Below are positions 3,992 to 5,674 of a stretch of DNA of 64,000 bases, in pieces; position 1 is the stretch's first letter, and the number at the start of each line of letters is the position of its first letter. The notes under the pieces were generated by a model. It had not been told where the DNA came from and did not search any database. It saw only the letters and a list, made by a program, of their open reading frames with translations. The position numbers were made by a program, and so were the translations under genes. Source of the DNA: Shigella phage sb1; sequence record PQ666539. One strand, written 5' to 3'.

Positions 3992-5674
3992 TTAAACCAT
4001 TACAGTAAATCGACCAACTTTCTTCATTTGAAGATGCTGACCATATTCTTGCGGGTCATGGTCTTTATGTGAAATTATAAAAACATTAGTATTTTTCATT
4101 GAATTTATAATATTAGCTACACCTTTAATACCTTCGGCATCAAATGACCCATCAAACACTTCATCAAGAATTAATGTACTAATACTAACACCAGATACGA
4201 TAGAAGCAATATCACGCCAAGTAAATAAAAGAGCAATATCGATTCGTGCTTTTTCACCTTCACTAAATGAAGAATAACTAAAATCTTCACGACCGCGGGA
4301 TTTAATTGTCTCCTTAAATTCTTCATCTAATGTAAACACATAATCCGATTCCATTATTTTAAGATAATGGTTAATTTGCTTATTAAATAATGGAATGTAC
4401 TTTTTAATAATAGCACCTTTAATACCAGAATCTTTGAGCATATCAGTCAAAATTCCTCTGTGATATTTTTCCATTACTAAATTAGTTTTTGTCTTAACAA
4501 TTTTATCAAGTTCTTCTTGAAGCAGTGCTATTTCATCATCATGGTCAATAAACTCGGATGATGCTTTTTCTATAGCTGCTTTAACTTTTTTAGCTTTATC
4601 TACAGTCGTGATTAGAGATTGCTTTTTATTTCGAATATCATTCGCCAACGTCTGCTGGGTTTTAATATTATCTCGTTATTCATCAACGAGAACTTTTAAA
4701 TTATAACGATGTGTTGAAAGCTGTTCAAACGAATGCGTGCATTCAGAAACTTTATCTTTAATTTTAGAAACAACTTTATCACCGGAACTTAATTGTGACA
4801 AACAGGTTGGACATAATCCACCTTCGTGATACATATTAATGACTTTATTATACGAGTCAATTTTTGATTTAATTAAAAATTCTTCTTGACCGATTTTATT
4901 AAATGCATCAGTCGGGTCTTCATCCAAAACAATATTAACTAATCTTTCATTAGCTTCTTCTATTTCCGATTTTAACGTTCTAGCTTCTTTTGCCAAATCA
5001 TCATACATATTCTGTAGACGAGTAAGGTTATCACCAGTTAATTTTTTCTGGCGTTCAACGTTATCATTATATATTTTAATTTGTTGGATAATACTATCTT
5101 TTTTAACATAAAGCACTTGGTTTTGTGAATTTAATTCACGTATTAGTGCTTTATTAAGCTTATCCATTTCAGCTAATGTTCCTACCTCGAGCAGGTCTTC
5201 GACGAGCTTTCTTCGTGCAGGGTTGGATAGGCCCATAAAAGGGGTATATCCAGCCGTGCCGAGTACGACGATCTGTTTGAAACTGGCGTATGACATTCCG
5301 ATAAGCTGTTCAAATTCTGTTTGGAAATCTTTACTGCTGGCAGATTCATTAAGACGTGTACCGTTAACGGTGATTTCGAAAACATTCGGTTTTTGTCCTC
5401 TTTTGATGTAGTACTTTTTCTCATCATATTCCATCCACAATTCAACTAAAAGTTCTTTCTTATTCGTGCTGTTTATTAATTGACCTTTCTTTACATCACG
5501 AAATGGCTTTCCAAAAAGCCCAAATGTGATGGCTTCTAACATAGTAGACTTACCACCAACATTTCGCCCGGTAATAAGAGTTTTTTGAACCTTATCTAGT
5601 TTAATGTCAATAGGATTTCCACCTACTGACATTATATTTTGATACCTAACTCGGTTTAGTTTAAAATTCTTCAC
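3992..5674 (-). pseudogene. 46: Recombination/repair Rad50-like ATPase gp46, 560 codons with in-frame TAA at 4676..4678
   Basis: Track ORFs 4676..5674 (Walker A GRNVGGKST) and 3992..4648 are in the same frame, separated by TAA plus 9 sense codons (RDNIKTQQT); total equals T4 gp46 length. Confidence 0.85.

Follow-up and report, generated by a model that had tools for sequence, protein, structure and literature searches.

The 64,000-nucleotide stretch of Shigella phage sb1 DNA analyzed here (record PQ666539; hereafter the window) has on its minus strand an ortholog of T4 gene 46 of ~560 codons with a single internal stop, at codon 333. The features of this gene that are referred to below are:

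3992..5674, minus strand: ortholog of T4 gene 46, encoding the Rad50/SbcC-like ATPase subunit of the gp46/gp47 nuclease, with coordinates that match those of the pSs-1 CDS
4679..5674, minus strand: N-terminal fragment of 332 amino acids from a GTG start, with Walker A, the first coiled-coil arm and the zinc hook
5558..5560, minus strand: G39V in the Walker A loop, GGC to GTT and including a G>T change, private to the window
4703..4705, minus strand: D324Y, codon 324 GAT to TAT, a private G>T change 27 nt upstream of the stop
4676..4678, minus strand: in-frame TAA at codon 333, which is TAC (Tyr) in relatives; the plus-strand base at 4676 is T in the window and G in relatives
3992..4648, minus strand: C-terminal ORF of 218 amino acids from a TTG, with the second coiled-coil arm, the signature motif, Walker B and the H-loop

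The split had been described in a first-pass annotation as a TAA followed by nine sense codons (RDNIKTQQT) that separate two ORFs of the same frame, and all of these elements are present. The upstream ORF (4676..5674, minus strand) terminates in the TAA, the nine sense codons occupy 4649..4675, and the TTG start of the 218-residue ORF lies at 4646..4648, in frame with the upstream ORF. The same annotation had named the gene as a Rad50-like gene 46, an identification that was borne out by the similarity of its protein to T4 gp46 (about 96% amino acid identity over an equal length), by its neighbors 45.2, 46.1, 46.2 and 47, which stand in a T4-like order, and by a match of the N-terminal part to the Pfam family AAA_23 above its cut-off (42.4 bits, cut-off 27). 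The gene is also equal in length to that of pSs-1. The Walker A P-loop is present at residues 36–44 and reads GRNVGGKST, where all relatives have GRNGGGKST. The zinc hook CPTC (residues 288–291) is invariant across an alignment of six sequences, and the Pfam Rad50_zn_hook model gave a weak match to gp46 (16.7 bits, under the cut-off of 24.3). In the C-terminal ORF, the signature SEGEK, the Walker B motif LILDEVFD and the H-loop ISH are conserved in T4, and the Pfam SMC_N match was likewise weak (25.8 bits, under the cut-off of 40). Gene 47 (Mre11-like) is intact at 6118..7137. The unbroken frame that joins the two ATPase halves in this family is interrupted in the window by the TAA at codon 333, and gene 46 as written is a disrupted copy of a Rad50/SbcC-type family member.

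The last ~90 residues of gp46 (the 3992..4400 region) are of the type found in T4 and vB_SsoM_113 (SIVSGVSIST...GSFDAEGIKGVANIINSMK), and differ from the C-terminal variant of pSs-1, sb2 and sb4 (EKVSGVKINT...SATDVEGVKAISTILDSLK). Based on these alignments, there is a natural mosaic boundary inside gene 46, in its C-terminal third, and the window is therefore not simply pSs-1 plus errors.

Codon 333 is TAC (Tyr) in all five comparators (T4, pSs-1, vB_SsoM_113, sb2 and sb4), which makes the TAA a single coding-strand C>A change (plus-strand G>T at 4676). The first-pass annotation had expected a sense codon such as TAT or GAA at this position in relatives, and the TAC that was found is close to the former. 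A search of 50,697 phage records with gene 46 returned 595 matches, none above 97.8% identity, and a search of the same records with the 101 nt centered on the stop found none above 97% identity. Within those 101 nt, vB_SsoM_113 differs from the window by three mismatches, all of them coding-strand changes of the G>T/C>A type: a G>T that gives D324Y, and two C>A changes, of which one makes Y333* and the other is a silent CGC>CGA. The 29-mer bearing the TAA was absent from IMG/VR, as were, equally, the versions with A, C or T at the changed base.

Comparison with the five relatives, where these were unanimous, revealed 17 bases in gene 46 that are private to the window. Nine are G>T or C>A changes, and every one of the nine alters the protein (Q25K, G39V, T151N, D189Y, A265E, D324Y, Y333*, A379D and A443S); of the seven private transitions, five are silent. 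Eight further private missense changes in gp46, including G39V in Walker A, had thus been missed in the first-pass annotation. With nine private hits and a chance of ~12% for each to create a stop, an error process of this kind predicts about one stop in gene 46, and the stop in gene 46 is in no way exceptional among those in the window.

These other stops were located by mapping the 112 genes annotated in pSs-1 onto the window, which is collinear with pSs-1 (NC_025829) from record position 31989 at 96.25% identity, with 2399 mismatches and 122 gap columns. Disruptions were found in 24 of the 112 genes, in 19 by a single-base stop and in five with indels. All 19 stop-bearing genes are gap-free; they are rpbA, gene 46, nrdH, nrdG, nrdD, vs, denV, gp3, gp5, gp6, gp9, gp10 and seven genes for hypothetical proteins. 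Besides that in gene 46, the stops lie at 3667, 11924, 12917, 13399, 21188, 21753, 22294, 31250, 35072, 38039, 38353, 39753, 41066, 45504, 49212, 50418, 57107 and 58189; the genes at these 18 positions are intact in pSs-1. The stops in gp3, gp5, gp6 and gp10 were verified by direct translation. Lesions in genes of known function include the following:

3667..3669, minus strand: rpbA, codon 24 TCA to TAA, of the G>T/C>A class
13399..13401, minus strand: nrdD, codon 481 GAA to TAA, of the G>T/C>A class
45504..45506, minus strand: gp3 (tail tube terminator), codon 83 TCG to TAG, of the G>T/C>A class
49212..49214, plus strand: gp5 (baseplate hub/lysozyme), codon 486 GAA to TAA, of the G>T/C>A class
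50418..50420, plus strand: gp6 (baseplate wedge), codon 35 GAA to TAA, of the G>T/C>A class
57107..57109, plus strand: gp9, codon 218 GAA to TAA, of the G>T/C>A class
58189..58191, plus strand: gp10, codon 290 TCA to TAA, of the G>T/C>A class
60270..60280, plus strand: gp12 (short tail fiber; gene at 59783..61332), frameshift by a 1-base deletion, CCC to CC

The deletion in gp12 lies near 60276 and changes AAAAACCCAAAA in pSs-1 to AAAAACCAAAA. A second gene, at 23043..24010, is frameshifted relative to pSs-1 by a 1-base deletion at ~23824 (ACACCAT to ACACAT), and a third, at 25600..26120, has gaps near its end, reads through stops and has lost its normal stop codon. The remaining two genes with indels, 57A and gp1, have them in multiples of three. 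Within 44229..45172, in-frame deletions of 12, 6 and 12 nt relative to pSs-1 were observed in 57A and gene 1, and in the annotation of sb2 gene 1 is shortened alike (714 vs. 732 nt). Since gene 1 of sb2 is equally shorter, these deletions seem to be natural variation in length and not errors. The first 20,000 nt of the window align to NC_025829 31989..51988 with no gaps at all, at ~96% identity and with identical gene coordinates. A gap-free 20 kb is unusually free of indels at such divergence, and could reflect a reference-guided step in making the consensus; the paper on the sibling phages reports de novo assembly with SKESA (PMC11993411).

The number of damaged genes bears directly on whether the TAA could be an isolated ochre mutation in gene 46, either of the classical conditional-lethal, DNA-arrest type or freshly arisen by spontaneous mutation. 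Proteins gp46 and gp47 are essential, their inactivation gives the strongest DNA-arrest phenotype, and gene 46 nonsense mutants with that phenotype are known (PMC3016281). The frame in the window is also open on both sides of the TAA, as it would be in such a mutant. However, a classical T4 gene 46 nonsense mutant has one lesion in an otherwise functional genome, whereas the window has many stops: across 64 kb, this TAA is accompanied by at least two 1-bp frameshifts and by single-base stops at 18 other sites, and gp46 itself has eight more private G>T/C>A changes that are missense. We consider an isolated mutant to be a very improbable source of the TAA. The single, possibly biological DNA-arrest lesion that the first-pass annotation had put forward is not supported either, as the same type of lesion is present in ~20 other genes, essential structural genes among them.

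Nearly all of the stops derive from one type of substitution. Eighteen of the 19 arose by a coding-strand G>T or C>A change (GAA>TAA in nine cases, TCA>TAA in three, TAC>TAA and GGA>TGA in two each, and TGC>TGA and TCG>TAG in one each). Counts of single-base codon differences between the window and pSs-1 set this class apart from all others, as listed here by codon position (1/2/3):

Transitions: 178/88/1059; 84% synonymous
Other transversions: 36/13/169; 144 synonymous, 73 missense, 1 stop
G>T plus C>A: 100/78/95; 65 synonymous (24%), 190 missense, 18 stops

The transitions and the other transversions look like natural divergence that has been filtered by selection, judging from their codon positions and effects. 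The distribution of the G>T/C>A changes over codon positions, in contrast to that of the transitions (chi-square p = 1.5e-52), did not differ from uniform (p = 0.23). Random G>T/C>A changes in these genes were computed to be synonymous in 8.6% of cases, missense in 79.0% and stops in 12.4%. Natural divergence from pSs-1 probably accounts for about one-quarter of the G>T/C>A class; when the natural share of the 273 coding changes is taken as ~77, the number of reverse changes, an excess of ~196 is left, from which ~24 stops are expected. That 18 were seen indicates that stops have not been purged by selection.

Relative to pSs-1, the window as a whole has 356 G>T/C>A sites, or 1.59% of G:C pairs. 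They are symmetric between strands (on the plus strand, 188 are C>A and 168 are G>T) and evenly spread (14–38 per 4 kb). The context most often affected is CCG (3.70%, 25 of 675 sites, vs. the mean of 1.59%; binomial p = 1.1e-4), although its enrichment is modest and all 16 contexts are affected. The G+C content of the window, at 34.71%, is 0.31% below that of the matching pSs-1 span (35.02%). The excess is also directional and private to the window: in the first 25 kb, the ratio of private G:C>T:A to private T:A>G:C changes was 122:24, compared with 12:12 for pSs-1, 17:6 for sb2 and 66:17 for sb4, where "private" is relative to a small panel of three to five relatives. Eight exact proteins of the window, including the conserved gp45 and gp55, were sought among ~15 billion public proteins and none of the eight was found.

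The G:C to T:A changes might instead be real, having accumulated in an oxidized stock or in a host without repair of 8-oxoguanine (8-oxoG), in which case the record would describe a heavily mutated, largely defective genome or population. Bacterial mutM and mutY mutators yield G:C>T:A changes from unrepaired 8-oxoG, and the spectrum in the window equals that of unrepaired 8-oxoG in vivo. The changes also sit in the consensus, with no flag as minor variants, as real mutations would. The T4 counterparts of gp3, gp5, gp6, gp9, gp10 and gp12 are each needed for growth, as established by T4 genetics. Stops in gp3, gp5, gp6, gp9, gp10 and gene 46 together with the gp12 frameshift on one genome would not give plaques, however, and a mixture of defective genomes would not place these bases in the consensus. 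The frequency of stops, which is near that of unselected random changes, also indicates that no growth-based selection took place after the stops arose. Neither plaque formation nor growth is possible for a phage with all of these lesions, and the TAA in gene 46 is therefore taken to be an artefact. Real mutation on this scale is improbable, although it is the least improbable of the alternatives to error that we considered. Less probable again is a form of it in which an oxidatively hypermutated genome has a gene 46 that is truly split and was kept through complementation in a mixed lysate or through assembly of Rad50 from two polypeptides.

A further alternative is that the stop is decoded or tolerated, whether by codon reassignment or a suppressor tRNA, by a bypass of the T4 gene 60 type, or by production of Rad50 as two polypeptides with the second beginning at the TTG. 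The ATPase head of Rad50 has been rebuilt from N- and C-terminal halves that were expressed separately, and the split in gp46 falls in the coiled coil, right after the zinc hook, such that each half retains its motifs. The in-frame stops in the window are mixed, though (14 TAA, 3 TGA and 2 TAG), and replace Glu, Ser, Tyr, Gly and Cys, so that no single codon reassignment fits five amino acids and three stop codons. We searched the ten tRNAs of the window for a suppressor anticodon and found none, all ten being ordinary:

41561..42388, minus strand: cluster of ten tRNA genes (Arg, Asn, Tyr, Met, Thr, Ser, Pro, Gly, Leu, Gln)

The annotation of sb2 has the same set of ten. Reassignment and suppression were thus ruled out by the mixed stop codons and the ordinary tRNAs. 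As for bypass, the 27 nt after the TAA are identical to coding sequence in most of the relatives compared and RDNIKTQQT is conserved; since these nine codons match the coding sequence of relatives, nothing is bypassed. A bypass of the gene 60 type was also rejected on the grounds that its take-off codon would be GAA and no in-frame GAA follows nearby. No Shine-Dalgarno-like sequence was visible upstream of the TTG (4646..4648), and of the 595 matching phage records, none of the 40 that were listed or the five that were inspected showed a split gp46. A two-piece Rad50 begun at the TTG is, by its sequence context, very unlikely, and we regard a decoded or tolerated stop as the least credible of all the explanations weighed here.

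The TAA in gene 46 is almost certainly an error, as it is one of ~20 stops that result from a window-wide, unselected excess of G>T/C>A changes. With a probability of roughly 90%, we attribute it to a base-calling or consensus error, or to miscoding by damaged DNA that was fixed in the sequence, in an error-rich record, and not to a property of a viable phage. Beneath the errors, the window is that of a pSs-1-like Tequatrovirus with ordinary, selection-filtered divergence. Added to this divergence are roughly 250–280 G:C to T:A changes over the 64 kb, which fall without regard to their effect on proteins; one of these turned Tyr333 of gene 46 from TAC to TAA, and others created a further 17 stops and numerous radical missense changes. 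In the real phage, gene 46 is most likely an uninterrupted frame of 560 codons in which position 333 is Tyr. The first-pass annotation had proposed a change that was either very recent or artefactual; the unselected G>T/C>A class and its many stops give good support to the artefactual half of that proposal.

The form of the error can be suggested from its spectrum. Our best guess is that oxidative damage was fixed in the consensus through low complexity of the template. In this scheme, 8-oxoG in the template would pair with A during amplification of the library, and with few independent templates, or a permissive consensus, the miscoded base would enter the assembly. The 8-oxoG artefact of sequencing libraries has CCG>CAG as its context (Costello et al. 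2013, PMC3616734), and it resembles the changes in the window in consisting of C>A/G>T only, in its CCG>CAG peak and in being blind to coding. It differs in that it occurred at a low allele fraction in deep data and with acoustic shearing (PMC3616734), whereas the changes in the window are in the consensus; the study of the sibling phages used enzymatic and not acoustic shearing (PMC11993411). Because 8-oxoG artefacts usually have a low allele fraction, an additional condition would be needed, either very low complexity or coverage or a faulty consensus. We also considered miscalling of glucosyl-hydroxymethylcytosine by Nanopore sequencing, which would likewise affect G:C pairs, and set it aside based on the use of Illumina NovaSeq in the sibling study and the presence of only one 1-bp indel in a short homopolymer. 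Recurrent site-specific errors common to sb4 were rejected as well, with only 11 shared G>T/C>A sites in 25 kb, a number in keeping with ordinary shared polymorphism; the excess in the window is private and looks random.

Gene 46 in the window is then an ordinary T4-type Rad50 gene whose split has no value for understanding the biology of the phage. The finding serves as a flag on data quality, the error rate being ~0.4% per base and concentrated in G>T/C>A changes. Split genes, pseudogenes and odd residues in the window (e.g., G39V) should be weighed against that rate, and other findings of stop-interrupted genes in the window should be discounted because they belong to the same class of error.

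[quoted passage not shown] The siblings sb2, sb3 and sb4 (PQ666540-42) are named AKR2, CRD3 and TMC4 in that study, and ADG1 (PQ666539), with a genome of 164,945 bp, has the lowest G+C content of the four (35.16%, vs. 35.35–35.52% in the others) (PMC11993411). Predicted proteins number 285 for ADG1, 254 and 255 for two of the siblings and 291 for sb4/TMC4 (PMC11993411). The G+C deficit of the window and its many split genes fit this pattern. The sequences of sb2, sb3 and sb4, which are the closest collinear records, and of pSs-1 (NC_025829) align with the window at 96–97% identity; in pSs-1, sb2 and sb4, gene 46 is uninterrupted and reads TAC at codon 333, unlike the TAA of the window. The record of sb4 looks error-rich too. 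In its first 25 kb (PQ666542, 1..25204), genes annotated as fragments include those for DNA polymerase, the clamp loader (gp62 and gp44), gp47, nrdD (in three pieces) and endonuclease VII, and sb4 has an excess both of private G>T/C>A changes (66) and of A<>T transversions. The record of sb4, and probably PQ666539, would mislead comparative or therapeutic-phage analyses that are based on gene content. In the annotation of sb2, DNA polymerase is given in two pieces.
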